A stretch of DNA of 64,000 nt from Oligoflexales bacterium (GCA_965226195.1 OZ245333.1:562167-626166), one strand, 5' to 3'. Positions 2,751-63,374 are shown, numbered from the stretch's first letter. Notes: generated by a model not told the origin, from the sequence alone. Numbers and translations are program-made.

Positions 2751-2784
2751 GGAGCTAGGAAGCGGCAAAAGGCTCGCGGAGCGA
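2751..2784 (+). repeat. REP-like AAGCGGCA core, single copy
   Basis: GGAGCTAGGAAGCGGCAAAAGG followed by TCGC-GGA-GCGA hairpin. Confidence 0.7.
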
Positions 2785-2937
2785 CCCATCCCTTCAGATT
2801 GTTATACTAAATTCGTGAGTTTAAAAAAAACGGCAGGCATACCATGGCCATCAAAAGCTAACAAAAAGTAGTGAGCATTCATTCAGCCATCTGCGCCCGC
2901 AGATGACAAAACAGCTCGCTTTCTCGCTCCATACTAA

Positions 2938-3009
2938 CTGGGGTAGCAGGATTCGAACCTGCGCATGCTGGGATCAAAACCCAGTGCCTTACCACTTGGC
3001 TATACCCCA
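2938..3009 (-). tRNA. tRNA-Gln (TTG), CCA not encoded
   Basis: TGGGGTATAGCCAAGTGGTAAGGCA-CTGGG TTTTGAT CCCAG-..GGTTCGAATCC..TACCCCAG cloverleaf. Confidence 0.97.
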
Positions 3010-3294
3010 CTAGATACTCTCGCTACGTTTAGCGACCTCTGCGTATTTAAGTTGCAAGTCGGAGAGCAGTTCGTTGAGTTGGTGTTCCTCCTCGTCGCTG
3101 AGATTGTCACAGGTCTTATCTTTGAGCATAGTGAGTATGGCAATGTTATACCGTGCTGTCGGCAAATCGAGCTCGCCTCCCTTACCGCTACCAGACACCT
3201 CCCCTAAGCAACGCAATGCAAGAGAGCAAACACTCAACACAAACTGAGAAAATTCCACCTCCGTTTCGTGCGTTGTGTCCTCCTTTTGCATCAT
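3010..3294 (-). CDS. DUF1844 family protein
   Basis: F..FVLS..SLA..LG..DLPTARYNIAILTMLKDKT..NLS.EE...L..LL.DLQL.Y pattern. Confidence 0.8.
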   Translation of the reverse strand: MMQKEDTTHETEVEFSQFVLSVCSLALRCLGEVSGSGKGGELDLPTARYNIAILTMLKDKTCDNLSDEEEHQLNELLSDLQLKYAEVAKRSESI

Positions 3295-3346
3295 CGCCTC
3301 AATACAGGTAACATGGACGTGTGTGATATTATTGCCACGAGTGAAA

Positions 3347-6177: not shown

Positions 6178-7602
6178 ATGTTTTTTTTCCTGCTCCCCCT
6201 GCTAATCTGCACTAGTGCCCTTGCTGCCCCTTCACCACAACGCTGGCTGGCCTTCGGCGACCTGCACGGCCACGTCGAATCCTGCGGCTGCGACCCGCGC
6301 ACCGATCTCGGTGGTTTGAACCGCCTGCACTACTTTCTGCAGCTTGAAAAAAAAGCAAATAGCCCCTTTTTACTCTTTAATCTCGGCAACAACCTCAACC
6401 ACCCCCCACACCACCTCAAAGACAGCACCATCGTGCAATTCATCGCCCAGTTGCGCCCCACCGCCGCCCTGCTCAATAGGCACGAACTCACCCGCCTCGA
6501 CCTGATTAGGCGGCAGGGAGCTAGGAAGCGGCAGGGAGCTAGGAAGCGGCAGGGAGCTAGGAAGCGGCAGGGAGCTAGGAAGCGGCAGGGAATCAACGAA
6601 GCTCGCACCCACTGGCTGCTCAGCAACCACAAGGCAAGCAAACAATGGTGGCACAAGGTTATCACCACCCCCGACGCAGTAGTGCTCGGCTATACCTACA
6701 CACCAGCACTGGCGAAGGATGTGCAGCGTTTCGACCCGAACATGGCCAGCGCATGGCAAAAAATTCTCCGTAAGCAGCACACCAAACACAGCTATCTGCT
6801 GTTCTCTGGCTCGCAGCAAGACTTGCAGGCTATCGTGCGGACGGTGAGTTTTGGCACGATCATCGCTGCCAACACAAGCCCCGACGACGCACCCATCACC
6901 CATCAAGAAAAGCTTCAACCACAACGCCTCGTACTCAGCGTTGGCACCAGGCAGATACACATGACTCCGCTTGCGGGGCAGGGCGTGCTGCGAGGCGGGG
7001 CAATGTTGACCAATGCAGTTGAGGCTGATTTTGGTAAAATTTTTGGTAAAGATAAGAAAAATTTCACCAAAAATAACCAAGACACGTCGCAATCACTGGC
7101 AAAATTTTTCCGTGTCACACAGGTTTCGTGGCTCGATCGTGCCTATGCCGACGAGAGTGCGGCGTTTTGGCAAGCCTATCAGCGGGCGGTACAGAAAGAC
7201 TTCGCCGCAAAGGAAGCAAGGGGACGCAAGTTGCTGGCCAAGACCAACTTTATCGGGGCGGCGGCGTGTCTAGGTTGTCATCAGAAACAGTATCAGGTGT
7301 GGAAAAACTCCCCCCATGCCAACGCCATGCTGACCTTGCAAAACAAAAAGAAAGCACAGGACAGCGAGTGTGTTGCTTGTCACAGTGTCGGCTTCGATGC
7401 GGGTGGCTATGTGTCGCTGCGTCTCAGTCCCCACCTTGCGGGGGTGCAGTGCGAGAACTGTCATGGGACACGCAAGGCACATATCCTTGACCCCAAACGC
7501 AACGCAGGAGCAAAGACCACCTTCACCTGCCGCAAATGCCACCATCCTCCGCACACAGCAGAATTCGATCAAGATGCCTACTGGCAAAAAATCAAGCACT
7601 GA
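6178..7602 (+). CDS. secreted tetraheme c554-type cytochrome with N-terminal UshA/metallophosphatase-like domain
   Basis: Signal peptide; GDLHGHVESCGC; 4 CxxCH (CLGCH, CVACH, CENCH, CRKCH). Confidence 0.85.
   Translation: MFFFLLPLLICTSALAAPSPQRWLAFGDLHGHVESCGCDPRTDLGGLNRLHYFLQLEKKANSPFLLFNLGNNLNHPPHHLKDSTIVQFIAQLRPTAALLNRHELTRLDLIRRQGARKRQGARKRQGARKRQGARKRQGINEARTHWLLSNHKASKQWWHKVITTPDAVVLGYTYTPALAKDVQRFDPNMASAWQKILRKQHTKHSYLLFSGSQQDLQAIVRTVSFGTIIAANTSPDDAPITHQEKLQPQRLVLSVGTRQIHMTPLAGQGVLRGGAMLTNAVEADFGKIFGKDKKNFTKNNQDTSQSLAKFFRVTQVSWLDRAYADESAAFWQAYQRAVQKDFAAKEARGRKLLAKTNFIGAAACLGCHQKQYQVWKNSPHANAMLTLQNKKKAQDSECVACHSVGFDAGGYVSLRLSPHLAGVQCENCHGTRKAHILDPKRNAGAKTTFTCRKCHHPPHTAEFDQDAYWQKIKH
6510..6591 (+). 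repeat. in-frame 18-bp tandem array (x4.5)
   Basis: GCGGCAGGGAGCTAGGAA repeated; encodes (RQGARK)n. Confidence 0.95.
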
Positions 7603-8831: not shown

Positions 8832-9920
8832 ATGGAACGTGAGATGGAGCTAGAAAGCGGCAAAGAGTCCTGCGCAGCAGAAAGCGGCAAAGAGTCCTGC
8901 GCAGCAGAAAGCGGCAAAGAGTCCTGCGCAGCAGAAAGCGGCAAAGAGTCCTGCGCAGCAGAAAGCAGCCAAGAGCAGCACCATAAGCGCAGCAAAATGG
9001 TCTTGGTGGCTGGCAATGCCAACCGCCCACTGGCTAAGGGGATTGCCGCTTATCTCGACATTCAGCTCGCTGATGCCTTAGTGGGGCAGTATTGCGACGG
9101 TGAGAGCAGGGTGGAGTTGCGCACCAATGTGCGGGGTGCTGATGTCTTTATCGTGCAGCCAACCTGTCCGCCCGTCAACCACCACATCATGGAGGCGATC
9201 ATTATCGCCGATGCTTGTCGGCGAGCATCAGCTGGCTGTGTAACGCTGGTTGCTCCTTATTTTGGCTATGCGCGGCAGGAACGTAAAAGTGCTTCCCGCA
9301 CACCGATTACTGCCAAGTTGACGGCAGACTTGATCGAGGTGTCGGGGATCAAACGAGTGTTGACGCTGGAGCTGCACGAGTCGGCGATTCAGGGTTTTTT
9401 CAACATTCCCGTCGATCACCTGTTCATCAAGCCAGTATTTGCAGAACACTATCGTGATTGCCGCAACATGGTGGTGGTCTCGCCCGATGCAGGCGGGGTG
9501 GAGCGAGCACGAGCGATGGCGAAACTGTTCGCCTGTGAGCTGGCAATTCTCGACAAGCGGCGGGAAAATCCTAACGACAGCACCATCATGAACATCGTCG
9601 GCAACATTAATGGCAAGGACTGTTTGATCGTCGATGACATCTGCGACACGGGCGGCTCACTGATCAACGCAACCACGGCACTGCTAGAAAATGGCGCACA
9701 GTCCGTGCGTGCTGCCGTAACTCATGCGGTGTTGAGCGGCGATGCTGTTGAAAAGCTGGTAGCCTCACAATTGCAAGAACTGCTGGTGTCGGATTCGATC
9801 TGCTTGCCACCTGCGGTGTCCACCTGCGAAAAAATCGTCACCCGCTCGGTTGCAGAACTGCTGGGTAAAGCAATTTACCGCATTTACAACTCCGAATCGA
9901 TCAGCAAACTTTTTATCTGA
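8832..9920 (+). CDS. prs: ribose-phosphate pyrophosphokinase (repeat-encoded N-terminal extension; alternative start 8997)
   Basis: PYFGYARQ, VVSPDAGGVERA, LIVDDICDTGGS motifs. Confidence 0.97.
   Translation: MEREMELESGKESCAAESGKESCAAESGKESCAAESGKESCAAESSQEQHHKRSKMVLVAGNANRPLAKGIAAYLDIQLADALVGQYCDGESRVELRTNVRGADVFIVQPTCPPVNHHIMEAIIIADACRRASAGCVTLVAPYFGYARQERKSASRTPITAKLTADLIEVSGIKRVLTLELHESAIQGFFNIPVDHLFIKPVFAEHYRDCRNMVVVSPDAGGVERARAMAKLFACELAILDKRRENPNDSTIMNIVGNINGKDCLIVDDICDTGGSLINATTALLENGAQSVRAAVTHAVLSGDAVEKLVASQLQELLVSDSICLPPAVSTCEKIVTRSVAELLGKAIYRIYNSESISKLFI
8846..8976 (+). repeat. 27-bp tandem array (x4+) at prs 5' end
   Basis: AGAAAGCGGCAAAGAGTCCTGCGCAGC units with CTGC-GCA-GCAG hairpin; encodes (ESGKESCAA)n. 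Confidence 0.95.
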
Positions 9921-10079: not shown

Positions 10080-12586
10080 ATGTTGCGGATACGTATTACC
10101 AGACTAGCGTTGATCTGGATACTGTTTGCGGTGATTGGAGGACTGATCTTCAGCGGTCTCGATCACACACTGTTGACAAGTGGTGGTAAACACACTGCCG
10201 TTGCAGAAAGCTCGGAACGTGATACCGAACGAGAGCATCAAGACAGGGGGGCGTTAATCGTCTTTGACGATGACGATCTTCAGGTTCGTTACGGTGAATA
10301 CAGCGAGACCGAGTTCACCCTTGCTCTCCCCAGATACCATGACACCGACGAAAGTCGGGTTATCATTGATTGGCAGGTAATCGGCGCACAGTTACCCGCT
10401 GGCATGGAACTCCAACCCCTCGAAGAACGACAAGCACTTGTATACGGCACACCACAGTTTGTCGGGCGGTGGTGCTTCACCCTCGCCGCACAGTTTGAGC
10501 TGCTGCCAGAACTAGAGTCGTCTGCACCTCCATCAGATTTGCACAGCACGAGTCGGCAAGTGTGCTTCTTATCTGCACACAACGAGCAGTTGAGTTACCC
10601 ACATTTTTCCACCTCCACCCGCCTTGACCGTGCCGAGAAAAACAGCAAATACAGTGAAAAGATAAGATTTGAGCACGGGGATCGCCGCACGAGTGTGAGT
10701 GTAGCATGGCATAACCTGCCCAACTCGTTGGAAATCGAAACCCGTAACAGAAGAGGTTATGTCAAGATAAGCGGCAAGCCGCGTGACCGCGACAGTCATG
10801 TTATTTTCTCTGACAGTGTCTCGGAAGAGAACCAGCCGCAATTGACCGAGTTGTTTACGGTCAAAGATGAGAGACAATCACGCTTTAAAGAACTTGAACG
10901 ACATACGTATCGCATCACCGCAGTCTATCCTGACGGAGAAACTCCCGCAGAATCCCACGAAAGCTTGTGGGTAAATCGCGGTGAGGTGGTGCTCGCTACG
11001 ATTACCTATGACAAACGCCCCTTTTATTTCAATGTGTTCAGGGCAATGGGAGACAACAACGACGCACGCTTCATTACTCGTCTTGATCCGCAACCTTCGG
11101 GATCGGAATACTTGCTCGATCGCAACGCCACACCCCCACGTACAATGCGAGCGACAGGAAACTTTTACATCATGCTCAAACTGACCAGTACAACCCGCGA
11201 TAGTGCAGATGGTGGTATTGTCACGACCTGGAAGCAGTTCACGCTGACTATAGATGAGGAAAAGGAAGAGAGCGAGCGTAGCCGTTCTTATCGCTGTCCG
11301 TCAGGATACTACTACGACAGGGTCTTGCGCCACTGTGTGCAAAGCCGCGGCAACCCGTGTCCGCAGGGCACTTACTACGAGCCAGCTTACAACACCTGTC
11401 GGAGTTACCCTTCTTCGCAATACTGTCCGTCAGGATACTATTTTGACCATTTTTTGCGCCGCTGTGTGCTCGATAACTACCCGCGCTGCCCGTGGAATTA
11501 TCGCTGGGATTCCTTTTATAACCAGTGTGTGCCCAATCCTTACTGGTGTCCGCTGGGTTTCTACTATAACTGGTGGGGGGGTATATGCCTGTTCACCGAT
11601 CGTAGCTGTGAGAGTGGCTGGCACTATGATTACGGAGTCAATCGTTGCGTGCGCAACCAACGTGCCTGCTCGCCCGGCTATGTTTGGGATCGCAGCTCAC
11701 AATCTTGTCAACGCAACCGCCGCAACTGTAGAGCTGGCTATCACTGGTCGGCACGCCTGAACCGCTGTGTCTATCACGGTAGCGTGCGTTGCCGTGATGG
11801 GTATCGCTACGACGATCGTCGCCGAGCATGTGTGCGTATCGAACGCGAGCGTCGCTGTCCTCATGGCGAACACTGGAGTCAGAGGCGCGGACACTGCGTA
11901 CCCAACAATCGCCCGACCCGCAGACCTACGGCACGGCCGACTAGTTCACCGAGTCGTAGACCGACAGCACGGCCGACTAGTTCACCGAGTCGTAGACCGA
12001 CAGCACGGCCACGAGTTCACCAACGCGTAGACCTACGGCAAGACCAACTAGCTCACCGAGTCGTAGACCTACGGCAAGACCAACTAGCTCACCGAGTCGC
12101 AGACCGACAGCAAGACCAACTAGCTCACCAAGTCGTAGACCGACAGCAAGACCGTCCCGGTCACCAAGTCGTAGACCAACAGCAAGACCAACTAGCTCAC
12201 CGAGTCGTAGACCGACAGCAAGACCGTCCCGGTCACCAAGTCGTAGACCAACAGCAAGACCAACTAGCTCACCGAGTCGTAGACCTACGGCAAGACCAAC
12301 TAGCTCACCGAGTCGCAGACCGACAGCAAGACCAACTAGCTCACCGAGTCGTAGACCTACGGCACGGCCGACTAGTTCACCGAGTCGTAGACCGACAGCA
12401 AGACCATCCCGGTCACCAAGTCATAGACCTACGGCACGGCCGACTAGTTCACCGAGTCGTAGACCGACAGCAAGACCATCACGCTCATCGAGTCGTAGAC
12501 CAACGGGACAGCCAACGAGTTCGCCAAGTCGCAGAAGGCGTGGTGTGACAGAAAACTTACTGCCGCTACCATCTGTTCGTAGGTGA
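10080..12586 (+). CDS. surface protein: Ig/cadherin-like domains, 10 Cys-x12-Cys repeats and Pro/Thr/Arg (RRPTARPTSSPS) tail; 1-bp deletion near 12010
   Basis: N-terminal TM; LP.G..L..GTP Ig-like motifs; CPxGYYxD..C repeats; restoring one G at ~12010 continues the PT repeat to TGA 12584-12586, which overlaps the mltG ATG. Confidence 0.8.
11911..12535 (+). repeat. ~17 degenerate 36-bp coding repeats
   Basis: Unit approx. CGTAGACCGACAGCAAGACCAACTAGCTCACCGAGT. Confidence 0.9.
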
Positions 12587-13626
12587 TGATACGTCTACGC
12601 CATGTTCTGGTGGTAGGATTGCCATGCTTCTTGCTGGCAATCCTACTGACGGTCACGGGATTGTGGAAGTTGCAGCACTGGGGAGATGCATCGCGTCGTT
12701 TGACAACGCCGCGCAGTGTGTATTTTCCGACCAGCACTTCTTTGCGCACTTTGGCACAGACACTTGAGCAAGAGGGAGTAATAGATTCCGCCCTCTTGTT
12801 CCGCCTTTTCGTGCGCTGCTGTTCTGATTTCAAGAAATTTCAAGCGGGCGATTATCGTTTTGCGGGCAGCACAAGCCCTGCTCAAGTTGCAACACGTATT
12901 ATTGCCGGTGACATTCACATCGAGTTGCGCCTGCGTTTCAGTGTGCCAGAGGGGTTTACGCTGGCCAAGATAGTGGCACGCATGGCTAAACACAGGCTGG
13001 GCACACAAGCAGAGCTGCAGCAGTTGGCACGCGACCCTGATTTGCTCACGTCACTCAAGATCAATGCAGATTCGCTCGAAGGCTATCTTTACCCTGCTAC
13101 GTATAGTTTTTATCAAAAACTACCAACAGCACGGCAGGTGTTTGCGCGCATGGTGGCAAAGTGGCACGCGATGTTGCCAGCTGATTACGAACCGCGGGTA
13201 GCAGAGAAAGGCTTGACCCTGCACAAGGCGGTGACAATGGCTTCTCTGATTGAATTGGAGACGGCGCACGACGATGAACGCGGCAAGATATCCGAGGTTA
13301 TCTGGAAACGGCTCAAGGATCGCACGCCACTAGGAATCGATGCAGCAGTCATCTATGGCATCAAGGATTACGATGGGGACTTGAAACGCCGCCACTTGCG
13401 GGATGCCTCAAACCCGTGGAATACCCGTATTCATCGTGGCTTACCACCTACTCCGATTGGCTCGCCTTCGCTCGCTTCACTGCTGGCAGTGCTGAAGCCA
13501 ACCAACGAAGGACATTACTTCTACGTCTTGATTCCTGATGGCACTAAACGGCATCATTTTTCCCACACCTTGCGTGAGCATAACCGCCACGTACGCAAAC
13601 TGATGCGGGCAGCACGCAGACCTTGA
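12586..13626 (+). CDS. mltG: endolytic transglycosylase MltG
   Basis: PEG, LEGYLYPATY, ASLIELE, NPWNT, GLPPTPI. Confidence 0.95.
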   Translation: MIRLRHVLVVGLPCFLLAILLTVTGLWKLQHWGDASRRLTTPRSVYFPTSTSLRTLAQTLEQEGVIDSALLFRLFVRCCSDFKKFQAGDYRFAGSTSPAQVATRIIAGDIHIELRLRFSVPEGFTLAKIVARMAKHRLGTQAELQQLARDPDLLTSLKINADSLEGYLYPATYSFYQKLPTARQVFARMVAKWHAMLPADYEPRVAEKGLTLHKAVTMASLIELETAHDDERGKISEVIWKRLKDRTPLGIDAAVIYGIKDYDGDLKRRHLRDASNPWNTRIHRGLPPTPIGSPSLASLLAVLKPTNEGHYFYVLIPDGTKRHHFSHTLREHNRHVRKLMRAARRP

Positions 13627-13761
13627 AAACAAGCACACGCTTCGCTATACATGCAGTGTGGAGCGAGAACGCGGCCAAGAGCCGAGCGAAGCGAAAAAGC
13701 GGCAAAAGCCCAGAATTTCCCCCTTGCACGGCGGTCATTCATAAGCGAGTGAGGCGCGAGC

Positions 13762-14445
13762 ATGAACCAGCAAGCAAAGTCTTACTGGAACAATTATTAT
13801 GAACGGCATCAGTTTGCAGGTGGCAAAGCGCCATCGCCGTTTTTGCTGCAGATGTTGCCACGCCTACAGAAGGGGCGGGTACTTGACATCGCCATGGGTG
13901 AAGGTGTGAATGCAGTACACCTCGCCCAGAAGGGCAGTGCGGTCGAGGGGTTTGACATCTCCGAAGTCGCCTGCCAGCGCGCCACTGAGCTGGCACGTGA
14001 TACGGGCGTAGAACTGAAAGTCAAATGCACCGACGTAGATCTCTACCTGTTTGGCATCATGCAGTACGACACCGTCGTGATGAGTTTTTTTAAACCCGCG
14101 GTGCTACGCTATTATCCTGAAATAATCAAGGCACTGAAGCAGGGTGGCACGTTGCTAATGGAATCGTATCTCGTCGGCGCGATGCCCGCGGCGATCCCGC
14201 GTGAGGAAAATTATCGCAATTTTTATTTCAACAGCAACGAGTTTCTGCCTCACCTGAAAGGCATGCAGCTGCTCTATTACAGCGAAACTAAAATCAACGG
14301 CAAGGAGTGTGTGCAGTGCTTCGCTCGCAAACCCGTCGATCGCGATGCGCTTAAATATAATTTGTTTGACATGCACAGTGCGAAAGAACAGCAACCTGTC
14401 TCCCGCCAACTGGAACTGGCTGAAAAGCTTTTCAAAAAAAATTGA
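13762..14445 (+). CDS. class I SAM-dependent methyltransferase (TehB-like)
   Basis: VLDIAMGEGVNA motif I; GFDIS. Confidence 0.85.
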   Translation: MNQQAKSYWNNYYERHQFAGGKAPSPFLLQMLPRLQKGRVLDIAMGEGVNAVHLAQKGSAVEGFDISEVACQRATELARDTGVELKVKCTDVDLYLFGIMQYDTVVMSFFKPAVLRYYPEIIKALKQGGTLLMESYLVGAMPAAIPREENYRNFYFNSNEFLPHLKGMQLLYYSETKINGKECVQCFARKPVDRDALKYNLFDMHSAKEQQPVSRQLELAEKLFKKN

Positions 14446-15248
14446 AGCCTCGTCTTATTTCTAGTTTACAAAACCCGCACATCAAAGAACTGCTGAAGTT
14501 GCGTCGGGCGCAGAAAATCAAGCGCACACAACGTTTCTGTGTTGAGGGCGCACGCGAAATCGAACAGGCCTGTCAGCGTTTTACGCTGCTCGAACTCTAT
14601 GTGCAGGAAGAAACCTTGAGCAACCCGGCACGTGCCATCGTTGCTACGCGTAACGAAGTATTGCCTTATACGGTCACGGCCTCCGTGTACGCCAAAATTG
14701 CCGTGCGGGAAAACAAGGATGGCATCGTGGCCGTGTTTGCGGCACGAGATCTCCCACTGGCAGAACTGGTGTTGTCGGACTGTCCTTTACTCGTTGTCTG
14801 TCAGGAATTACAAAAACCCGGTAATCTCGGCGCAATGATCCGCACGGCACTTGCCGTCGGTGCAGATGCGTTGATCGCAGTTGAGCAGAAGATGCATGTC
14901 TGCAATCCTAACGTCATTCGTGCTAGTCTCGGCTATGTCTTTACTTTACCACTTGCAGTAGCTAGCAGTGCAGAGGTGGTTGAATTTTTGCAAGCAAAAA
15001 AAATAAACATTGTGGTTGCGGATGGCTCACGGCCGGGGCTTACTTACAGCAACTATGATTTTACCGCACCGACGGCAATCATCTTCGGCAGCGAAGCGGA
15101 AGGACTGAGCTCTTTCTGGCGAGAACGCGACGTGACGCGTCTACACATTCCCATGACCGCGGCAGTCGATGCTTTGAATGTCTCTGTCTGTGGCGGTGTT
15201 ATCCTGTACGAAGCGTGGCGACAACGACAAGCTAGTGGGTGTAAGTAA
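14442..15248 (+). CDS. TrmH/SpoU family RNA methyltransferase
   Basis: PGNLGAMIRT, FGSEAEGLS, IPM..DALNVS. Confidence 0.93.
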   Translation: MKPRLISSLQNPHIKELLKLRRAQKIKRTQRFCVEGAREIEQACQRFTLLELYVQEETLSNPARAIVATRNEVLPYTVTASVYAKIAVRENKDGIVAVFAARDLPLAELVLSDCPLLVVCQELQKPGNLGAMIRTALAVGADALIAVEQKMHVCNPNVIRASLGYVFTLPLAVASSAEVVEFLQAKKINIVVADGSRPGLTYSNYDFTAPTAIIFGSEAEGLSSFWRERDVTRLHIPMTAAVDALNVSVCGGVILYEAWRQRQASGCK

Positions 15249-16293
15249 CCTCAATTTTAGTCGTATTGGCAGGTAGGGTAATACTAATACTGAGTGAGTT
15301 GCCCTCAACACTGTATTGACCTTCTTCAAGAGTTTTTGTTTCTCCATCTTCGGTAGTGATGACAACTGTAGCACGGCTGCCGTCATGTTCGTGTTCCAGA
15401 GTAAAATTATTCTTGAGTGCCGCGGCGATATTTTGGGAAATTTCAGTCAGTATCTTGGTGTAGTCATTATTGAAAACAGAATCATAAAAATCAAACAGTG
15501 ACTCACCGCTTTCGTCCTTCCATTCAAGAAACCTGTCTGCACCCTTCGGTTCGGAACTGCCCTGTGCTTTAGTATCGAGTAGGCCGTAGACCCGCCCTGT
15601 TGCATGTGGAACACGGATGCTCTTTAGATAAAAGTATAAATCGGTAATGTGGCAGCCATGATGGTGTATGCATTGATGGTCTTCATCGGTAATCAGCAAT
15701 ACGGCCAACATCGACCCATCCCGTACCCATGCCTGTTTCTTGTTGCAAAGACTGTTGAAACCACCGCGACTTTCTGCTGCTAGTTCAAGTCCATAACCAA
15801 CTATGGATGTCTTTTCCTTGCTATATGATCGTGCCGCGATACAGTCACCTCGCAGCCCTCGTATTGCTCCGTAGATAGCTTGCTCAGGCCCGTAATAATT
15901 TAATAAAGAATAGTCCTCGAAGCTTGCTTGTAAACTTTTCTGAGTGATGGTTTCAGTAAAAATTTGCTTGTAGTTCGGGGTGTTCTTGTCAATGACAGTT
16001 AGTAAGCAAGATAAGGGACTAGTGGTGGTGATAGCAATTTGCCAATCACTATCCTTGACGGCTACTAACAGATCCTCCAGACGTGAGGAAAGTGTGCGAT
16101 GAACTGGATTCATCGAGCCTGACTCATCTATCACCAGCAGAATATCGAGCTTATCGTGTGTTGTTTTTTCTGGCACAAAATTTTCGGTAGATTTTTCTGA
16201 TGCAGCTTGATCGGAGGAAAAGGAAGTGTTCACCGTATTTTTGTTACAGGTAACAAGCATACACAAGATAGCCAAAAATTTAATGCCCCGCAC
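15232..16293 (-). CDS. vWA-domain lipoprotein
   Basis: Lipobox-like LVTC; DILLVIDESGSM MIDAS motif; ITDED. Confidence 0.8.
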   Translation of the reverse strand: MRGIKFLAILCMLVTCNKNTVNTSFSSDQAASEKSTENFVPEKTTHDKLDILLVIDESGSMNPVHRTLSSRLEDLLVAVKDSDWQIAITTTSPLSCLLTVIDKNTPNYKQIFTETITQKSLQASFEDYSLLNYYGPEQAIYGAIRGLRGDCIAARSYSKEKTSIVGYGLELAAESRGGFNSLCNKKQAWVRDGSMLAVLLITDEDHQCIHHHGCHITDLYFYLKSIRVPHATGRVYGLLDTKAQGSSEPKGADRFLEWKDESGESLFDFYDSVFNNDYTKILTEISQNIAAALKNNFTLEHEHDGSRATVVITTEDGETKTLEEGQYSVEGNSLSISITLPANTTKIEVTYTH

Positions 16294-16318
16294 ACTTGCT
16301 ATCCACAGGGTGGATCTA

Positions 16319-17356
16319 CTATTGTTCGAGTGTAATATCAACACATATCCCTTCAACAAATTTTGCTCGTGTAAAAATTACATTTTTCTTGACCTGATAA
16401 TGGCTGTCATGAATAAAACCATCTGGTGTCTCTTCTTTATCAGGTGCATTAAAAACTTTTATCCGAGCAATAGCTACATCCTCTCCCGCGGGGTTACTTG
16501 CACCTGCCCCTACTCTGTGTTGCAATGCACCAGCTGGCAGAGATGGGGCAATAAATACCCCCCGCAAGGTGTTGGCAATATCGGCAGAAAAGTCTTCTAA
16601 CACTCTTTTGTAATCAGATTGCAAAGAGCCATAACGACTGAGCACGTTCTTATCTTGCTCATTTTTCCAGTTCAAGAAATCATCCAAACCCTCTTCAGTA
16701 TTCAAGATTGCGTAGACTTTTGTAAGATGTGCATCTTCTTCGTCAGCAATAACAACTTTGCTTTCTTCTAGCTTTGTGTCAGAAAAACTTTTGGCAGTGA
16801 CGATGATAAACACACGCAATGTCGCAGCTTGAGGTTGTCGCGGGTTAAGCCCAGCTAGCTGATCAGCATCAGGTGCTTGCCCTTCTGTGTCGGGGGTCTC
16901 CCCAGCCCCCTTGCCCACACCAATCGCCGCGGAGAATTGTTTGCTATAGTCGGCATAGTTTGCATATTTAGTGATGAATTTAGTAGGATACGCAGTTGCT
17001 TCAAGATCAGCGACAGCAATGTTCCAGTTACTGTTGATGATGTGTTTTAGCAGTGCGTCAATGCCTTCGGCTAGCTTTTCTTTCTGTTCCGCAGCAAGCT
17101 CACTATCGACCAGCAGCACTATCTCCACCACATCCGCGGCAGTAACCTCTGCATAGGTTGAAAAGGTAAACTTCTCGTAGTCTGAAGGTAAAGAACCTTG
17201 TGACTGTTCCTGAATAGCACCCGCGGTGTTACCGTCACCGACAACAACCGTTGCTGCACTGCTGTCACGATTGCTTGCGCCACCTCTACAAGCAATACTC
17301 GTCACCAACAAAATATATACTACTAACCTCACAACTACCCTCTTGCAAAAGACCAT
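16319..17356 (-). CDS. degenerate vWA-like lipoprotein, paralog of neighbour
   Basis: Lipobox SIAC; EIVLLVDS, W.IA, FL.WK, DY..L.E.S..IA..L shared with the 15232 protein. Confidence 0.7.
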   Translation of the reverse strand: MVFCKRVVVRLVVYILLVTSIACRGGASNRDSSAATVVVGDGNTAGAIQEQSQGSLPSDYEKFTFSTYAEVTAADVVEIVLLVDSELAAEQKEKLAEGIDALLKHIINSNWNIAVADLEATAYPTKFITKYANYADYSKQFSAAIGVGKGAGETPDTEGQAPDADQLAGLNPRQPQAATLRVFIIVTAKSFSDTKLEESKVVIADEEDAHLTKVYAILNTEEGLDDFLNWKNEQDKNVLSRYGSLQSDYKRVLEDFSADIANTLRGVFIAPSLPAGALQHRVGAGASNPAGEDVAIARIKVFNAPDKEETPDGFIHDSHYQVKKNVIFTRAKFVEGICVDITLEQ

Positions 17357-17472
17357 AATATGTATCGGCTCTATTTTGAAAAAATTTAATAAAATAAATT
17401 AACACAATAAATTTAGCATGTTATACTTAAAGAGTTAGAGATGTCGCTAGCTGTTGCCAACCACCTTGAACA

Positions 17473-17734
17473 CGCTTTGTTGCATAACTCAGAATCATCA
17501 CTGCTAAAGGATTAAGGGGCTTTGCCTCCAGAAAGGGCTGCTACCCTTTCTTTACCACACAAAAGGGCTTCGCCCCTTTGAACCCCTGGTGTGAAGAGAA
17601 AGTCAGGGGTTTCACCCCCAACACCCCCACCAACTTTTTATAAAAAGTTGGATCAAAAATTTTTAGTTATTTATTAGGATAACCAGATATAATTATTTAT
17701 AAAATAACGACAAAAGCAGTTATGCAACAAAGCC
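17473..17734. mobile_element. second IS903-type MITE with different interior
   Basis: (C)GCTTTGTTGCATAACT ... AGTTATGCAACAAAGCC; no clean TSD; palindrome CAACTTTTTATAAAAAGTTG inside. Confidence 0.8.
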
Positions 17735-17760
17735 CCTTATCCCCGCTTGGAGCTGAACAT

Positions 17761-18300
17761 TCAGGGCACACCATACTTGGCAAGAATGCCGACCACACGC
17801 CAGTGTTCTCGCTTGATAGCAATATCACGGGCACTTTCGCCTGCATTGTTTCTGATATCAAGATCGGCGTTGTTTTTGATGAGCAGCTTTGTCAGGCGTG
17901 GCAAGCCTTTGCGTGTACGATCGCGAAAAAGCGCGGCGTGATGCAAGGCAGTGTTGCCATCAGCATCGACGGCGTTCAAGTCTGCCTTGTGCTTGATGAG
18001 TAGGCGTGCAGCACTGAGCCAGCTGCCTCTTTGTGCGGCTTCGAGCAAAGGTGTTGTCCCCGCGTCGCTGCGTGCATTGGGATCAGCCCCATCTTCCAGT
18101 AGCTGGGTTAGCCCACGTCTGTCATTAAACAACAACGCTTCAAACAATGACAAAGGTGCAGGCTGTGCCTCACGTATAAATGCAGCCCTGATGCTCTGTG
18201 GTAATAGCTGCAGTGCTTTCTTGACATCGATGAGTTGAGGACTCGGTGCAGCAACCGCGGTCACAGCAAAAGCAAATGCCAGCGAGAGCAAAGAGTTCAC
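17761..18300 (-). CDS. secreted ankyrin-repeat protein
   Basis: Signal peptide, GGAGG RBS; GTTPLLEAA, GNTALHHAA. Confidence 0.9.
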   Translation of the reverse strand: MNSLLSLAFAFAVTAVAAPSPQLIDVKKALQLLPQSIRAAFIREAQPAPLSLFEALLFNDRRGLTQLLEDGADPNARSDAGTTPLLEAAQRGSWLSAARLLIKHKADLNAVDADGNTALHHAALFRDRTRKGLPRLTKLLIKNNADLDIRNNAGESARDIAIKREHWRVVGILAKYGVP

Positions 18301-18418
18301 GTCCCTCCTCCGAAACTGATGATGAGATGTGAACCTCTACACTCTGCGCCGCTGTTTGTAAACTATGATTTTCTTTGCTGGCACAGTCGTATGTAGGCTA
18401 CGCCATTAGCATTATGTC

Positions 18419-19069: not shown

Positions 19070-19208
19070 CGTTCCAACAGTTCACATAGCCTCTTGTTCA
19101 GCAGCGGTGTATGACCTTGCAGCTTGTCTAGCACTGTCTGAAAAAGTATTTAGCTTTCAGTGTGTTAGAAAATCGCAAATTGTCGCCACATTCTGCGCGG
19201 CTCAAATC

Positions 19209-27073: not shown

Positions 27074-27137
27074 GCTTCGCTTAGGCTTTTTGCCGCTTAC
27101 TCGCTTCGCTCAGGCTTTTTGCCGCTTACTCGCTCCC
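27074..27137 (-). repeat. 29-bp tandem (x2) with AAGCGGCA core and GCGAAGC mini-hairpin
   Basis: GCTTCGCT(T/C)AGGCTTTTTGCCGCTTACTC twice. Confidence 0.85.
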
Positions 27138-29906: not shown

Positions 29907-29949
29907 GCTCTGTTGACATTTACTTTGCTTATTTTGCAGAGGACTCTCC

Positions 29950-30193
29950 GCCGCTTTCTAGCGGCTGCGCCGCTAACTCTTTGCCGCTTTCTAGCGGCTG
30001 CGCCACTAACTCTTTGCCGCTTTCTAGCGGCTGCGCCGCTAACTCTTTGCCGCTTTCTAGCGGCTGCGCCACTAACTCTTTGCCGCTTTCTAGCGGCTGC
30101 GCCGCTAACTCTTTGCCGCTTTCTAGCGGCTGCGCCGCTAACTCTTTGCCGCTTTCTAGCGGCTGCGCCGCTAACTCTTTGCCGCTTTCTAGC
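29950..30193. repeat. intergenic 33-bp tandem array (7 units + 13 bp)
   Basis: GCCGCTTTCTAGCGGCTGCGCC(G/A)CTAACTCTTT; minus strand has TAGCGGC-GCA-GCCGCTA hairpin; no spacers. Confidence 0.97.
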
Positions 30194-30248
30194 TCCACCC
30201 CATCAGCAAAGTGCTGACAGAGTGAAACAGCCAGCACTTGCGTAAGTT

Positions 30249-45343: not shown

Positions 45344-45351
45344 GAATAGCA

Positions 45352-52933: not shown

Positions 52934-53950
52934 TTGATAGCGGTGCGAGGTCTAGCCAAATACTACGGAGCGTATCAGGCGATCGAAGCACTTGATTTTT
53001 CTATCGCCCGCGGCGAAATCGTCGGCTTGCTCGGTCTCAACGGCGCGGGCAAGAGCACCGTGCTGAAAATTCTCGGCGCATTCCTCGTGCCCTCCGCAGG
53101 CTACGCCGAAGTAGCAGGCTGCTCGATTGCCGACAACCCCCAAGGCGTGCGGCGAGCCATCGGTTTTCTCCCCGACAGCCCACCGCTCTACCACGAGATG
53201 AGCGTCGATGCTTATCTCGACTACGTGCTCCGTCTTAAAGTCGGGTGTATCAGTCGTGCAGACCTAGATCGCCAGCGCGACGAAGCCCTCGACCGCACCG
53301 CACTGACCGCCGAACGCAGTCGCACTCTCGGCGAACTATCCCACGGCTTCGCCCAACGTGTCGGCATTGCCCAAGCAATCATTCACAAGCCGCCCGTGCT
53401 CATTCTCGATGAGCCTATCAACGGCCTCGATCCCGTGCAAATCGTCGAAATGCGCGATCTGATTTTATCTTTTCGTAACGAACATACGGTAATTTTATCG
53501 AGCCATATCCTGTCGGAAATTACCCGCACCTGTGACCGTATCCTCATTCTCGATCAAGGACGACTGGTGGCACAAGGCACAGAAGCAGAGCTAGCCAAAT
53601 CCATGCACAGCGGCAAAGCAATCACCGCCAAGACCGCTAAAGACCCACAATCTGCACTGGCAAACATTAAAAAAATCAGCGGCGTAGATGACATTACCTG
53701 CCAACAAAGCACACTCGGAGAATACGTGCTTACCATACAAATTGCCTCCGATGTGCGATCACAAGTGGCACGGCAACTGGTCGAATTTGATCTGCTCACA
53801 CTCAATGCCGCCGAGGATGGCTTGGAAGCACTGTTTATGCAATTAGTCAGCAGTGACAGCAGCAGGGAGCTAGAAAGCGGCAAGAAGCTAGAAAGCGGCA
53901 AAGAGTTAGCGAAGCTGCGAAACAAACGCAGCGAAATGGAGCAGCAATGA
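52934..53950 (+). CDS. ABC transporter ATP-binding protein (GldA-like)
   Basis: GLNGAGKST, LSHGFAQR, LDEP..GLD; repeat-encoded C-terminal tail. Confidence 0.93.
   Translation: MIAVRGLAKYYGAYQAIEALDFSIARGEIVGLLGLNGAGKSTVLKILGAFLVPSAGYAEVAGCSIADNPQGVRRAIGFLPDSPPLYHEMSVDAYLDYVLRLKVGCISRADLDRQRDEALDRTALTAERSRTLGELSHGFAQRVGIAQAIIHKPPVLILDEPINGLDPVQIVEMRDLILSFRNEHTVILSSHILSEITRTCDRILILDQGRLVAQGTEAELAKSMHSGKAITAKTAKDPQSALANIKKISGVDDITCQQSTLGEYVLTIQIASDVRSQVARQLVEFDLLTLNAAEDGLEALFMQLVSSDSSRELESGKKLESGKELAKLRNKRSEMEQQ
53862..53916 (+). repeat. in-frame 18-bp duplication of the AAGCGGCA core
   Basis: AGCTAGAAAGCGGCAA x2 then GAGTT-AGC-GAA-GCT; encodes ELESGKKLESGKELA. Confidence 0.85.
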
Positions 53951-57553: not shown

Positions 57554-57697
57554 TTTTTTTATCTGCTTTTCACAGCTGTTTTTTTTCATCTGCTTGCGCA
57601 TTTTGTTTTTTCATCTGCTGTTGCAGATGACTGTGTCGATACTCACTACGCTCGCATGGCTTTTTGCCGCTTTCTAGCTCCCTGCTTTTTGTTAGCT

Positions 57698-58190: not shown

Positions 58191-58570
58191 AGGGGTGTGG
58201 AGCTAGGCGTGCCTTCGGGCACGCCTTTGGCAAAGAGCCGTGCAAAGCGGGGAGGGGAACGGGCTTTGTTGCATAACTCAGGGCAGGCATGTTTATATCC
58301 TATAACCCTTTAGCAGTAAGAATTTTATAGGTGTTGCAAAGGTAATGCCTGCACCACGCACAAGCCCATAGTGTCCACAGAAGTTGACAATGGTCAGGTG
58401 CAAGCAGACCTGCAAACCATTTCACGCGAATGCTTCAGCATGAGACATGGTGCAGCAGGATGATTGCACCTGACCCAAACGAGAAGTCTGCGAACACGCA
58501 GGGGTGTGGAGCTAGGCGTGCCTTCGGGCACGCCTTTGGCAAAGAGCCGCGCAAAGCGGGGAGGGGAACG
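58191..58570. mobile_element. one-ended inverted copy of MITE 371-743, flanked by direct copies of a 70-bp hairpin module
   Basis: TIR at 58262-58276; 58262-58570 is the near-identical reverse complement of 436-743; 58191-58261 matches 58500-58570. Confidence 0.85.
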
Positions 58571-58836
58571 CCAAACGGAGCGAGACAACATAGGGGGAGG
58601 TCACATTAGCAATGTGCATGTGCACAAGAAGCGAGCGGAGTGCAGGGGTCAGCGAAGCTAACGCTCCCCACATATAAACAAACGCAAACCTTGATGCGAA
58701 ATTTGGTTTTTATTGCGGAGAGAAGTAGGCAAGTAGGCAAGCACGTCCACTTATAGGCAAGTAAAAAAATCACCCAAACACCTTGAATTGAAAAAATCAG
58801 TACTCAAGTGGTCGATTTATCGGCATACTTGTCTAC

Positions 58837-59988: not shown

Positions 59989-60219
59989 TTTGATAGTGGC
60001 AGGAGGAAAAATACCCAAACTTACTTAGCAAAAATGTAAATGCTGGCACGCACTCGTTGTGCCACTAAATGCCTGCTCACCCTAATGCTGACCAGCTACG
60101 CCGTCTCCATGCCGCGGCACCCAAATCAGATGATGCAAGCGGAGCACCGCTTTGACAAACATACTGGAGGTTGATAAAAGCGGCGCGGCGATGGTAGGTA
60201 TACTGTTCGGGGCATGGTA

Positions 60220-61281
60220 ATGAAACAACCACACACGTTGCTAACAGGGCTGATTGTTCTGCTGTCGTTGCTCGGCAACGGCGGCTGTGCAGCTCAGGCT
60301 GCATCTAAACTCAAACAACTATCGGACAAGCAGGTGATGCTACCGTTGAAAAAAACGATAACGAGTGCACTAGTCGCACTGTTGTTAGCAACGGGGACGT
60401 ATCAGCCTTTGGGCAAGATGCAAGCTGAACCCGCGGTTGAGGTCAAAATAATCGCCCCTGGCTTTAGAGTGCCACACTGGAGACTTGCAGGGCGCATCGA
60501 GCAACTCAAAGCTCGCGGTTTCCAAGTTTCCCTCGCCCAACCTAGCAACAACAGCATTGAGGCACGCAAGCAAGCCTTAATCGAAGCGTTGACTGACCCT
60601 GACTGTGTCAACTTTGTCTGTGCACGGGGTGGTTACGGCACTTCCGACCTGTTGCCGTATATCCCTTACGATGACTTGGATAATCCGAAACTGGTCATCG
60701 GTTACTCAGACATCTCCTCACTCATCAGTGCATTGTGGACGCAGCGTGGCATCATCGGCATCAGTGGGCCGATGCCCGGTGCGGTGACGTGGAACATCGG
60801 CAGCGAAGAGATGCGCGTCCTGCTCGGCATTATGCGCGGCACTGTCACAACAGGCAACATGCCTGTGCAACGGCAAGAAAACAGCAACACGAACGACAAC
60901 ACGATAGAGGGCACGCTGTTTGGCGGTGACATGTCTGTTTTGACCAACTTGATCGGCACACCCTACATGCCAGCCGCACTCGACGGCTATATCGTTTTTC
61001 TTGAAGCTGTAGGTGAAAACACCTATCGTATCATGCGTTACCTCAATCAATGGCAACAGAGTGGCATGCTAGACGGTGTGCGTGCCATAGTTCTTGGTCG
61101 ATTTGACAAACTCGGCGGCAACCAAGCTAATCTCTACAAACGTTTCGCCGCCCGTGTCAGTTGTCCTGTTTATACCACCAGTTCTTTCGGGCATCGCCAC
61201 CCGCTCTACCCAATACCCGTCGGTGGGCACGGAAAGATAGCTGACGGCAAACTAATCTGGCAACTGCCCGAACCGCGATGA
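60220..61281 (+). CDS. LD-carboxypeptidase (S66) with tandem signal-peptide-like leader
   Basis: RGGYG, GYSDIS (Ser), FLEA (Glu), FGH (His). Confidence 0.9.
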   Translation: MKQPHTLLTGLIVLLSLLGNGGCAAQAASKLKQLSDKQVMLPLKKTITSALVALLLATGTYQPLGKMQAEPAVEVKIIAPGFRVPHWRLAGRIEQLKARGFQVSLAQPSNNSIEARKQALIEALTDPDCVNFVCARGGYGTSDLLPYIPYDDLDNPKLVIGYSDISSLISALWTQRGIIGISGPMPGAVTWNIGSEEMRVLLGIMRGTVTTGNMPVQRQENSNTNDNTIEGTLFGGDMSVLTNLIGTPYMPAALDGYIVFLEAVGENTYRIMRYLNQWQQSGMLDGVRAIVLGRFDKLGGNQANLYKRFAARVSCPVYTTSSFGHRHPLYPIPVGGHGKIADGKLIWQLPEPR

Positions 61282-62270
61282 CAAACGAACCCTATCGTAA
61301 TGCAGGCGTAGATACCGCTAAGGCCGAACAAACGACGGCGTGGTTACAAACGGCAACAGACAAGCAGCACCATGCCGCAGGCGAGGTGCTGGCAGGCATC
61401 GGTGGGTTTGCCGCCCTGTATCGACCTGAACTAGGCAGATATCGTGAACCGCTGCTGGTGAGTTGCACCGATGGTGTGGGCACGAAGCTTGCTCTTGCCG
61501 CTGAACAGCGTTGCCTTGAAGGTATTGGCATCGATCTCGTTGCCATGTGTGTCAACGATCTCTTTACCAGCGGGGCACGACCGCTGTTTTTTCTCGACTA
61601 CTACGGCTGCAATGCACTGGTAGAAACGGACTTCAAACTCGTGCTCCAAGGCGTGCAACGTGGCTTACGGCAGGCAGACTGTCTGCTGCTTGGCGGAGAA
61701 ACGGCACAGTTGCCACACTTTTATCGCGATGATAACTTCGAGCTGGTTGGCTTTGTCGTCGGTATTGTCGAGCGGACACAGGTGTTGAGTGCAGCACGGG
61801 TACAGGTTGGTGATCGTCTTGTCGCTTTCCCCGCGTCAGGCTTGCACTGCAATGGCTTCTCGCTGCTGCGTCAACATCGTGTCAGCATCGAGCCGCATCT
61901 CGAACAGCTACTCGTGCCAACCCGCATTTATCACGAAATTCCTGCGCTGTGTGCGCGGGAGGTTGGCTTACATGCGTTGGCACACATCACTGGCGGTGGC
62001 ATTGCACACAACTTGCAGCGGGTGTTACCCGCAGGCTGTCGTGCGGTAATTGACACACAGCTCCTGCCAGTGCCGGCTTGGATAACGGAAGTCGCGGCAC
62101 ATTGTGGTCTACATACCTTTGCAGCCGCGCAGCGGGTATTCAATATGGGCACAGGCATGCTTGCCTGCGTCGCAGCTGAGATGGAGGCAGAGTTTCTTGC
62201 CGCAGCACAGGACTGTGTTAGTGTGGGTGAGATAGTTGCAGCGCAAGATGCAGGGGTGGATTTCAGGTGA
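61278..62270 (+). CDS. purM: phosphoribosylformylglycinamidine cyclo-ligase
   Basis: TDGVGTK, DLVAMCVND, GGETA, HITGGG, FNMG.G. Confidence 0.97.
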   Translation: MTNEPYRNAGVDTAKAEQTTAWLQTATDKQHHAAGEVLAGIGGFAALYRPELGRYREPLLVSCTDGVGTKLALAAEQRCLEGIGIDLVAMCVNDLFTSGARPLFFLDYYGCNALVETDFKLVLQGVQRGLRQADCLLLGGETAQLPHFYRDDNFELVGFVVGIVERTQVLSAARVQVGDRLVAFPASGLHCNGFSLLRQHRVSIEPHLEQLLVPTRIYHEIPALCAREVGLHALAHITGGGIAHNLQRVLPAGCRAVIDTQLLPVPAWITEVAAHCGLHTFAAAQRVFNMGTGMLACVAAEMEAEFLAAAQDCVSVGEIVAAQDAGVDFR

Positions 62271-63319
62271 ATCTGCAAGAACGTGGAGTTGAGTTCAGTT
62301 TTCCCAACGGCAGAAGCGGCGACCCGCTAGTCTATGGTTTTAATCATCGCACGGGCGAAGCCTTTCTGTTTGATCTCGGTGGTTTAGAACGACTGGCACG
62401 CAAAAAATTGCTGAAGGTGAGCAAGATTTTCGTCAGTCACACACACATCGACCACTTTGTCGGCTTCGATCGGCTGCTGCGCATCAACGTGCCACATCGC
62501 CGCGTGTTGGAATTTTGCGGCCCGCCCGGTATCGTTGCCAACATTCAGGGCAAGCTGGCGGGCTATGCGTGGAACTTACTCGAACGCCATCAGATTCGCT
62601 TCGTGATTCACGAGTTGCATGCCCCCAACCGCATTGTTTCGTATAGGTTGCAGTTTGAGGACGGCTTCAAGCTCTATCAGTTTCATGACTTTCCACATCC
62701 CGACGGCACAGTCACAACTTTCAAGGATGGCGCACGCATCAAGGCAACGCTAGTTGATCACGGCATCCCTGTCGCCTCGTATCGCCTCTGTTTTCCACCC
62801 AAATATCGTGTGCGCAGCGAGGAACTAGCCAAGCATGACGTACAGCCAGGCCCGTGGCTGAAACAACTGCTCGCGGCACTCGACGACCCACATGCACCTG
62901 AAGAGATAGCTGTGGAGGGCAAAAACTATCGCATCGACTGGTTGAAAGATAATCTGCTGGACTGCTATCCCGAATTTTCCGTCAGCTATCTTACTGACTT
63001 GCGCTTTTGTTGGGAAAACCTCGATGTGGTCAAAAAACTACATTGGGACACCACAGTGCTATTTTGTGAATCTGCTTTTAATGCGGAAGACTGTTTACGG
63101 GCAGTGCAGAAGGCACATCTCTCGACTCGTCAATGCGCTTTGCTCGCCAGCTGGATTGGCAGTCGGCGGTTGGAAAATTTTCATTTTTCTAAAATCTATA
63201 GCCCCCGTAGTGGTGCACTGCGAGGCGAAGCTGAGCGTTATCTCAAACGCTATCGGCAGCTGAACACGGTGCAGCTGCGGCAACAAATTGAACTAGAAAT
63301 TGCTCGCTGCAAAGAGTAG
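62267..63319 (+). CDS. ribonuclease Z-like MBL-fold hydrolase
   Basis: NG..GDP, SHTHIDHFVGFD, DHGIP, HLS, FHFS. Confidence 0.85.
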   Translation: MNLQERGVEFSFPNGRSGDPLVYGFNHRTGEAFLFDLGGLERLARKKLLKVSKIFVSHTHIDHFVGFDRLLRINVPHRRVLEFCGPPGIVANIQGKLAGYAWNLLERHQIRFVIHELHAPNRIVSYRLQFEDGFKLYQFHDFPHPDGTVTTFKDGARIKATLVDHGIPVASYRLCFPPKYRVRSEELAKHDVQPGPWLKQLLAALDDPHAPEEIAVEGKNYRIDWLKDNLLDCYPEFSVSYLTDLRFCWENLDVVKKLHWDTTVLFCESAFNAEDCLRAVQKAHLSTRQCALLASWIGSRRLENFHFSKIYSPRSGALRGEAERYLKRYRQLNTVQLRQQIELEIARCKE

Positions 63320-63374
63320 GAGCTAGGAAGCGGCAAAGAGTAGGAGCTAGGAAGCGGCAAAGAGTGGGAGCTAG
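63309..63374 (+). repeat. 24-bp tandem array (x2.7) that supplies the upstream stop codon
   Basis: GCAAAGAGT(A/G)GGAGCTAGGAAGCG units. Confidence 0.9.

Follow-up and report, generated by a model that had tools for sequence, protein, structure and literature searches.

Very short interspersed repeats, probably non-autonomous, that spread and grow into tandem arrays in one genus of Oligoflexales

A stretch of 64,000 nucleotides from an Oligoflexales bacterium (GCA_965226195.1 OZ245333.1:562167-626166; hereafter the window) carries a short core sequence that recurs on both strands, in single copies and in tandem arrays of many periods. We judge it likely (probability about 0.7) that this core marks a repeat family peculiar to the genus, interspersed, non-autonomous and very short, whose copies spread to new sites and then grow into arrays locally. 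The genome that holds the window, G000, is a single contig of 2.95 Mb with 49% G+C, and we compared it with those of two congeners, the repeat-rich G001 and the repeat-poor G002.

A modular core dispersed through one genus

The motif AAGCGGCAAA occurs 19 times in the window on both strands, against an expectation of 0.38, and none of 100 shuffled sequences reached 19. The sequence GAGCTAGRAAGCGGCA, allowing up to two mismatches, likewise has 19 matches against 0.06 expected; these include the single copies at 2752 and 57665, while the single copy near 13697 is matched by AAGCGGCAAA alone. Much of this had been anticipated in an earlier note on the same DNA, which listed core copies on both strands, six arrays and five GNA-loop hairpins: the core is present at the listed positions, Tandem Repeats Finder (TRF), with which we called the window arrays, recovers all six arrays with the periods given, and each of the five hairpins can be read in the sequence. 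The motif is also over-represented genome-wide, as the reading in that note required: a 16-mer form of the core is found 84 + 84 times in the 2.95 Mb of G000. A census of G000 with a 19-mer core, at up to three mismatches, returned 518 matches that fall into 281 loci, of which 194 are single and 87 hold two to eleven copies. Seventy of these loci lie inside a 406-bp MITE (a miniature transposable element bounded by inverted repeats); the remaining 211, outside it, are referred to below as free loci. The proposals that one core lies behind arrays of many periods, and that copies run head to tail rather than as inverted doublets, both hold: 61 core-bearing tandem arrays were found in G000, with periods from 14 to 153 bp (most commonly 27 bp in 16 arrays, 18 bp in nine and 39 bp in four), all of them direct, and strands are mixed at five of the 281 loci.

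The family is modular, a head (GGAGCTAG) being followed by a box (AAAGCGGCAAAGAG) and then by a 3′ hairpin built on GCGNAGC, which together make a minimal unit of about 36-45 bp. The GG before AGCTAG in the head is near-invariant (194-199 of 207 loci) and is preceded by a T in 105. The hairpin takes two forms, a short one, TC-N-TGCGNAGC, and a long one, TCTCCAC-GA-GCGAAGC-GA-GTGG, which contains tandem G-A mismatches. The period of an array follows from the modules repeated: head and box give 18 or 24 bp, box and short hairpin 27-33 bp, the whole element 39-45 bp, and composites of modules the longer periods. A single head bounds the 27-bp arrays, which usually close with a hairpin or a degenerate end module.

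GCGNAGC is found within 30 nt downstream of 266 of the 440 free core copies (125 of the 211 free loci), compared with 0.9% of random 30-mers, and its loop base, counted per locus, is most often A (68), then C (28), G (26) and T (19). The stem gains at least one further Watson-Crick pair at 56 of 118 GCGNAGC loci (47%, against 26% of 2,050 control sites) and at least two at 26 loci (22% against 7%), while a longer stem bridged by GA..GA is present at 31 (26% against 0.9%). What the earlier note says of variable stems with conserved pairing thus holds only in part: extra pairs exceed the controls, at some of the 118 loci. The hairpin accounts for 7-19 nt of a 36-45-nt unit, so that the palindrome is a minor share of the element, and the 18- and 24-bp units have no hairpin beyond a 3-bp GCT/AGC stem. 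In published work, GCGNAGC is described as an exceptionally stable hairpin for any N, with melting temperatures in degrees C of 76 (A), 73 (G), 71 (C) and 70 (T) (PMC13037366).

The 16-mer occurs 168 times in G000, 270 times in G001 and eight times in G002, and was not found in 38 other genomes of the order. An 11-mer gave 279, 372 and 42 copies in the three genomes, and 2-25 in ten other genomes in which control counts are similar. In a search of one genome per species, covering 185,579 species with G000 itself left out, an exact 21-mer matched only G001. Judged by these sequence counts, one genus of uncultured Oligoflexales holds the whole family. Within G000 the orientation of the core shows no strand trend along the chromosome. 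The composition of the whole chromosome gives no clear place for origin or terminus, cumulative GC skew being weak and nearly monotonic, and the strand bias of its genes is slight.

Nine loci of the family lie in the window:

2750..2790, + strand: single element, head and box GGAGCTAGGAAGCGGCAAAAGG followed by a TCGC-GGA-GCGA hairpin; intergenic, with a tRNA gene (2938-3009, - strand) about 150 bp away
6502..6593 (TRF 6510-6591), + strand: 18-bp array of 4.6 copies, head and box only; inside ORF 6178-7602
8846..8996, + strand: head, 27-bp array of 4.6 copies (TRF 8852-8975; box and CTGC-GCA-GCAG hairpin) and degenerate end module
13655..13712, + strand: degenerate single element with GGAGCGAGAACGCGGCCAAGAG, GAGCGAAGCGA and a second box; between two same-strand genes
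27074..27137 (TRF 27074-27134), - strand: 29-bp array of 2.1 copies, box and AGC-GAA-GC hairpin; intergenic spacer
29943..30197 (TRF 29943-30193), - strand: 33-bp array of 7.6 copies, whose hairpin (TAGCGGC-GCA-GCCGCTA) has a stem of 7 bp; between convergent genes
53865..53925 (TRF 53868-53902), + strand: 18-bp array of 1.9 copies and AGC-GAA-GCT hairpin; in ORF 52934-53950
57630..57682, - strand: single element; intergenic, antisense to the flanking + strand genes
63309..63376 (TRF 63309-63374), + strand: 24-bp array of 2.8 copies, head and box, no hairpin

Several of these loci touch open reading frames (ORFs). The array at 6510 is an 81-bp in-frame insertion, missing from both congeners, that is read as (GARKRQ)n within a protein carrying a multihaem cytochrome domain. 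The conserved ATG start of prs, at 8997, lies just downstream of the 8852 array, which would become an N-terminal extension in the longest ORF (from 8832); the Pfam domain begins at residue 56. At 53868, the array forms the C-terminal tail (ELESGKKLESGKELAKL...) of an ABC ATPase whose stop codon overlaps the ATG of the next gene, and it is missing from both congeners. ORF 62267-63319 takes its last codons and its TAG stop from the first unit of the 63309 array, and ORF 29929-30237 (- strand) consists almost wholly of the 33-bp array. The 27074 array, whose period is not a multiple of three, is also missing from both congeners, while the spacer orthologous to the 13655..13712 site is 93 bp shorter in G001, judged from coordinates alone. 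When contigs from four public sequencing runs were mapped onto window positions 13001-33000, one contig bridged the 27074 array without a gap. Rfam assigned no family to any array in the window or to the MITE, its sole match in the window being a tRNA.

The MITE itself (G000:C1:239890-240295) has terminal inverted repeats of about 22 bp and is present in about 85 copies at 91-99% identity, mostly 96-99%, with a partial copy at approximately 58249-58571 of the window. It holds two core-like segments in direct orientation, one followed by a perfect 20-nt palindrome and the other interrupted by an inserted hairpin. The window also contains a 36-bp array of 16.1 copies unrelated to the core (11922-12501), inside ORF 10080-12548 (822 aa), which has weak matches to chitin-binding (CBM_14) and PT-repeat families. 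In two further short segments, 17474-17734 and 20772-20900, summed contig depth is very high and joints are numerous in all four public runs, and G002 has multiple matches to both; they probably represent another interspersed repeat family.

Recent insertion, growth in place and copies inside genes

We compared 22 loci with the orthologous places in G001 and G002, where flanking genes are about 71-86% identical to those of G000. Four window loci lie outside this set: the arrays at 29943 and 63309, both between convergent genes at synteny breaks relative to both congeners, the single copy at 57659, also at a synteny break, and the unplaced copy at 2751. At 17 of the 22 loci the core is present only in G000, which argues for recent spread. 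These loci are:

Window: 6510, 8852, 13697 (from coordinates, against G001 only), 27074 and 53868
Elsewhere in G000: 76331, 488579, 489347, 1386399, 1392277, 342981, 348843, 2905712, 2312571, 2313663, 1496677 and 1504444

The core is common to all three genomes at 2367153 and 2314156, and to G000 and G001 at 1748203, where G002 is empty; two loci (2366740 and 1460493) are not assignable as shared or G000-only. Related genomes preserve clean empty sites of the kind that the earlier note had proposed to look for, with inserts of 108 bp in alanyl-tRNA synthetase (AlaRS), 42 bp in MutL, and 39, 36, 39 and 126 bp at further sites. No regular target duplication was found at the clean junctions, where 0-5 nt of identity with the element ends occur inconsistently: the AlaRS insert is flanked by the 4-nt repeat CCAC and the 36-bp insert by GAGC, whereas the MutL insert has no flanking repeat. 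At about half of some eight clean junctions, by our reading, the empty site of at least one congener already has GG, TGG, GGAGC or GAGCT at the place that the head occupies in G000. On sequence grounds, such junctions would fit a weak target preference, microhomology-guided insertion or an unrecognised site-specific enzyme. A search in the opposite direction, for empty sites in G000 using the 100-bp flanks of 47 G001 loci, gave none that was usable, three paired flank matches being repeat self-matches.

Loci shared between species reveal what happens after insertion. At 1748203 the coding sequence of G002 runs on without a break, G000 has 11 units of 27 bp read as (LESGKELAK)n, and the G001 region, longer by 93 bp, mixes units of 45, 27 and 18 bp; all of these are in frame. 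At 2367153, G000 has one copy, G001 a decayed copy of equal length and G002 a 39-bp array of five units, and at 2314156 either the periods differ among the three genomes or the copy has decayed. Species-specific periods at orthologous sites imply that arrays grow in place. In the 27-bp arrays (16 arrays, 52 units), units are 97.2% identical within an array and 78.3% between arrays. This contrast, the repetition of sub-modules and the period differences at orthologous sites fit slippage or unequal exchange better than copying from the core by an enzyme. Of the active amplification put forward in the earlier note, recent spread is supported, with 17 of 22 loci specific to G000, and enzymatic copying outward from the core is unsupported.

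Predicted in-frame translation of many copies inside genes is the main feature that the earlier note had missed. Genes were called with our own crude ORF caller, which takes the longest ORF and thereby inflates the class of copies at ORF 5′ ends. By these calls, 82 of the 211 free loci (39%) lie inside ORFs, in stop-free frames, 35 of them at least 300 nt from both ORF ends, while 125 are intergenic. The in-gene copies read as ELESGKE(LAK), as GARKRQGVS.. or, antisense, as ..DSLPLSSS. Among 49 loci at least 150 nt inside ORFs, the frames used are LESGKE (19), SLPLSS (15), ARKRQR (12) and LCRFL (3), and no stop-containing frame is used by any of the 49. The hosts, identified with Pfam, are ordinary proteins and include AlaRS, MutL (two insertions), oxoprolinase, porphobilinogen deaminase (HemC), a menaquinone-synthesis enzyme, two 2-oxoacid dehydrogenase E2 subunits, a carboxyltransferase, YjeF, UvrA-like ATPases, a disulphide oxidoreductase and an ankyrin protein. 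Inserts sit between domains or divide one Pfam match into two stretches, and from these domain boundaries they appear to occupy loops or linkers. The period is divisible by three in all 31 arrays in ORFs, compared with 12 of 30 intergenic arrays, a contrast which shows that array formation is indifferent to period and that selection then filters the products.

We propose a course of three steps. Copies would first enter new sites repeatedly and recently, both between and inside genes, a step that we regard as established. A placed copy would then grow or shrink locally, with the duplicated modules setting the period; here the outcome is equally well established, while the likely cause would be replication slippage or unequal exchange between the internal direct repeats of the element, aided by its mini-hairpins. 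Finally, selection would act as a filter, leaving within genes only copies in stop-free frames and arrays whose period is a multiple of three, and we count this step, like the first, as established. The surviving in-gene copies would give hydrophilic peptides (ELESGKE.., GARKRQ.., DSLPLSS..) between or within matched domain stretches. Since new insertions in two diverged species keep the same 22-bp core while old copies decay, we infer from the sequences that some factor may recognise the core.

Mechanisms and competing explanations

A number of observations weigh against a spreading, locally growing repeat family. The dispersal step rests on patterns of presence and absence alone, with no mobilising gene found, and the junction evidence comes from about eight clean junctions, several of whose alignments are ambiguous and some of which could be shifted by 1-2 bases. 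Copy-number variation within a population was not observed, and contigs from the public runs break at arrays, those of all four at the 33-bp array. Nearest-neighbour DNA folding finds the expected small hairpins, and folding energy is no better than that of shuffled sequences in seven of eight units (z from -0.13 to +2.03), the 33-bp unit alone folding better (z = -2.99). The energy model may not credit sheared G-A loops; because the computation shows no excess stability, a role for the hairpin rests on the published melting data (PMC13037366). The figure of 31 out of 31 ORF arrays is partly circular, because periods not divisible by three run into the TAG frame, and in crude ORF calls neighbouring ORFs may be lengthened or joined by a repeat whose frame is open.

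How copies reach new sites is a separate matter, for which we entertain, as a long shot, a transposase-free, polymerase-driven, self-seeding minisatellite. A nascent or broken 3′ end that terminates in GCGNAGC would snap into the very stable mini-hairpin, leave its template and re-prime by microhomology of a few bases; re-priming nearby would add a unit to an array, while re-priming at a distant copy would yield a templated insertion at a new site. The 0-5 nt of junction identity without regular duplication, the arbitrary periods of intergenic arrays and the lack of any Y1 HUH or RVT_1 gene where these were searched for are compatible with such a course.

Somewhat less probable, in our estimation, is mobilisation by a HUH enzyme of the RAYT or IS200 type acting on a repetitive extragenic palindromic (REP) sequence, or rolling or templated copying, in which the enzyme amplifies outward and makes head-to-tail arrays directly, as the earlier note had favoured. 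The conserved head with its near-invariant GG ahead of AGCTAG, the 3′ hairpin and the clean junctions without consistent target duplication are what such an enzyme would be expected to leave; the retention of the core across species while old copies decay suggests recognition by some factor; and whole-element arrays of 39-45 bp would follow if the element's own 3′ end served as target. However, a six-frame search with Y1_Tnp (PF01797), for which the positive control rings in 6 of 14 known genomes, gave no match in G000 or G001. The sole Y1 gene of the genus, at G002:C1:239231-239590, is an IS200-type tnpA (148 aa) with no core in the 1.3 kb around it. Next to it lies a short ORF in divergent orientation that resembles a tnpB fragment, on our own reading without a family search; the tnpA gene itself belongs to an IS200/IS605-like element. 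No RVT_1 reverse transcriptase was detected in G000, the sole genome searched for it, and the Y2_Tnp search carries no weight either way, since its positive control was silent. Nor was any nuclease or transposase found among 15 tested proteins encoded between element copies, which are mostly ordinary enzymes, five lacking a Pfam family. Most arrays, moreover, repeat sub-modules (18, 24, 27, 29 and 33 bp) in which at least one of the two ends of the element is missing, and an orthologous site may have a different period in each species. The HUH, rolling-copy and reverse transcriptase proposals are thus unsupported.

Two other candidates for a mobiliser were rejected. A diverged Rpn-like family (recombination-promoting nuclease/putative transposase) is multi-copy, with 16, 62 and 19 partial matches in G000, G001 and G002, respectively, nearly all below the family cut-off (for example, G000:C1:2189876-2190862), and its 11 genes in G000 are no closer to core loci than expected by chance (three within 1 kb against 2.27, P = 0.41). 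A multi-copy cassette of about 2 kb encodes a secreted 493-aa repeat protein and no transposase. The cassette protein has about five 90-residue repeats, with an ankyrin-repeat fragment alongside; the ten copies listed comprise window 865-2587 (G000 563031-564753) and nine elsewhere in the genome, among them G000 144091-146242, 439049-441255 and 1915148-1917540, and three copies are bracketed by inverted core elements. Separately, a tRNA-Pro gene at G000:C1:1236957-1239300 has partial copies of its 3′ half on both sides, two in all and each with a core element in front, and next to these lies the gene for a large serine recombinase, one of the 15 tested proteins; the site looks like an integration hot spot.

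The core might instead be a useful, non-mobile site under selection, such as a protein-binding site, an RNA element or a DNA-uptake-type signal, which we consider slightly less probable again than an HUH enzyme. Such a role would account for a 22-bp core that is near-identical in independent insertions of two species although their orthologous genes have diverged (to about 75-85% identity), and for the many copies at gene ends. It is harder to reconcile with an intergenic orientation that shows no preference relative to the flanking genes (36, 31, 29 and 29 loci in the four possible arrangements), with the lack of a strand trend along the chromosome and of an Rfam family on the arrays, with the decay of old orthologous copies in G001, or with the tolerance of the same DNA in three frames and both orientations in unrelated enzymes. 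To our knowledge, uptake signals and regulator sites are not clustered into arrays, which also counts against this explanation. Finally, selection at the protein level for flexible charged linker or surface peptides in a host-associated bacterium, with the DNA family as a by-product, would suit the in-frame arrays of up to 11 units in real proteins and the richness of G000 in ankyrin and other repeat proteins, but is very improbable given that one DNA yields three unrelated peptides by frame and strand, that 125 of 211 free loci are intergenic, that 18 of 30 intergenic arrays have a period not divisible by three and that 70 copies lie inside a non-coding MITE.

Relation to known repeat families and significance

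The preferred reading, of very short non-autonomous repeats that spread and then grow locally, combines behaviour otherwise seen in Rickettsia palindromic elements (RPEs) with that of minisatellites. RPEs are elements of about 150 bp in ten families, of which 44 insertions in genes of R. conorii are described, nearly half as in-frame fusions (PMC10969869). Both cases involve selfish-looking, in-frame insertion into unrelated housekeeping genes, which adds a peptide and leaves the gene intact, and no transposase is known. The present units, however, are three to four times shorter (36-45 bp) and come from a different phylum, and this unit size, against about 100-150 bp for the palindromic RPE unit, together with the genus-restricted exact 21-mer, sets them apart from the RPE families. 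The present copies, moreover, expand into tandem arrays and use several frames; we know of no RPE that expands in this way.

Mycobacterial interspersed repetitive units (MIRUs) of M. tuberculosis provide the minisatellite parallel: one related unit recurs in variable-number tandem arrays dispersed over many loci, frequently at the borders of genes. Their units are 46-101 bp long, and in the work of Supply et al. MIRU classes are said to vary in length and to overlap flanking stop and start codons. The present family likewise forms 61 arrays, whose copy number and period vary at orthologous loci, here between species rather than strains. In contrast, MIRUs are without a GNA mini-hairpin module and are not reported in essential enzymes in three frames, and the present family changes its period at a single orthologous locus. 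MIRUs have been described as minisatellites with copy-number variation (PMC3635867).

The family resembles the REPs of Proteobacteria and their doublets (REPINs), which go with RAYT transposases, in being short, high-copy, lineage-specific and mostly intergenic, and in combining a G+C-rich hairpin with a conserved tag that stays unpaired. REPs are described as carrying an unpaired GTAG or CGTC tag at one end of the palindrome, some copies are intragenic, including in repair genes, and one super-family (CGTC) is apparently without a dedicated transposase (PMC3733652). Here the head GGAGCTAG is separated from the hairpin by a 14-nt box, with no GTAG or CGTC beside the stem, the palindrome is not the main part of the unit and, by our crude calls, 39% of free loci lie in ORFs rather than being extragenic. 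Bacterial interspersed mosaic elements (BIMEs) contain REPs in alternating orientations (PMC2817692), whereas the present copies are direct, with mixed strands at 5 of 281 loci, and no RAYT, a Y1 HUH transposase gene that cognate repeats usually flank, was found in G000 or G001 to complete a REPIN-RAYT system.

PARCELs are tandem coding repeats with DNA dyad symmetry that are shuffled within genomes (PMC2996958), and the present family shares these features. A 25-residue protein motif defines PARCELs, which occur in ORFs whose function is unknown and which often code for membrane proteins; their spread is attributed to horizontal transfer, whereas the present family is defined at the DNA level, belongs to one genus and is also intergenic. 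As with MITEs, the copies are non-autonomous, numerous and lineage-specific; they differ in being far smaller, without terminal inverted repeats (the ends are not complementary by consensus) or regular target-site duplication. IS200/IS605-type elements use a Y1 transposase to insert, without duplication, 3′ of a fixed tetra- or pentanucleotide; what is seen here is GG ahead of AGCTAG at 194-199 of 207 loci, head-like bases at about half of some eight empty sites, and no Y1 gene in G000 or G001. Titles and abstracts on Oligoflexales symbiont genomes, in-frame palindromic elements and REPIN-RAYT systems contained no description of the family.

These genomes offer a natural example of very short repeats colonising a bacterial genome and remodelling its proteins, in which the same sequence of about 40 bases is read as three different peptides inside essential enzymes. 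Comparison between the species captures the stages, from empty site through single copy and array to decayed remnant, and ties the chemically well-studied GCGNAGC mini-hairpin to a repeat family on a genome scale. A self-seeding minisatellite, if true, would be a form of mobile DNA of which no bacterial case has yet been described. The question posed is what moves an element of about 40 bases without a transposase of the expected type, and the contrast among three congeners with about 370, 280 and 40 copies of the 11-mer offers a route to the responsible gene.

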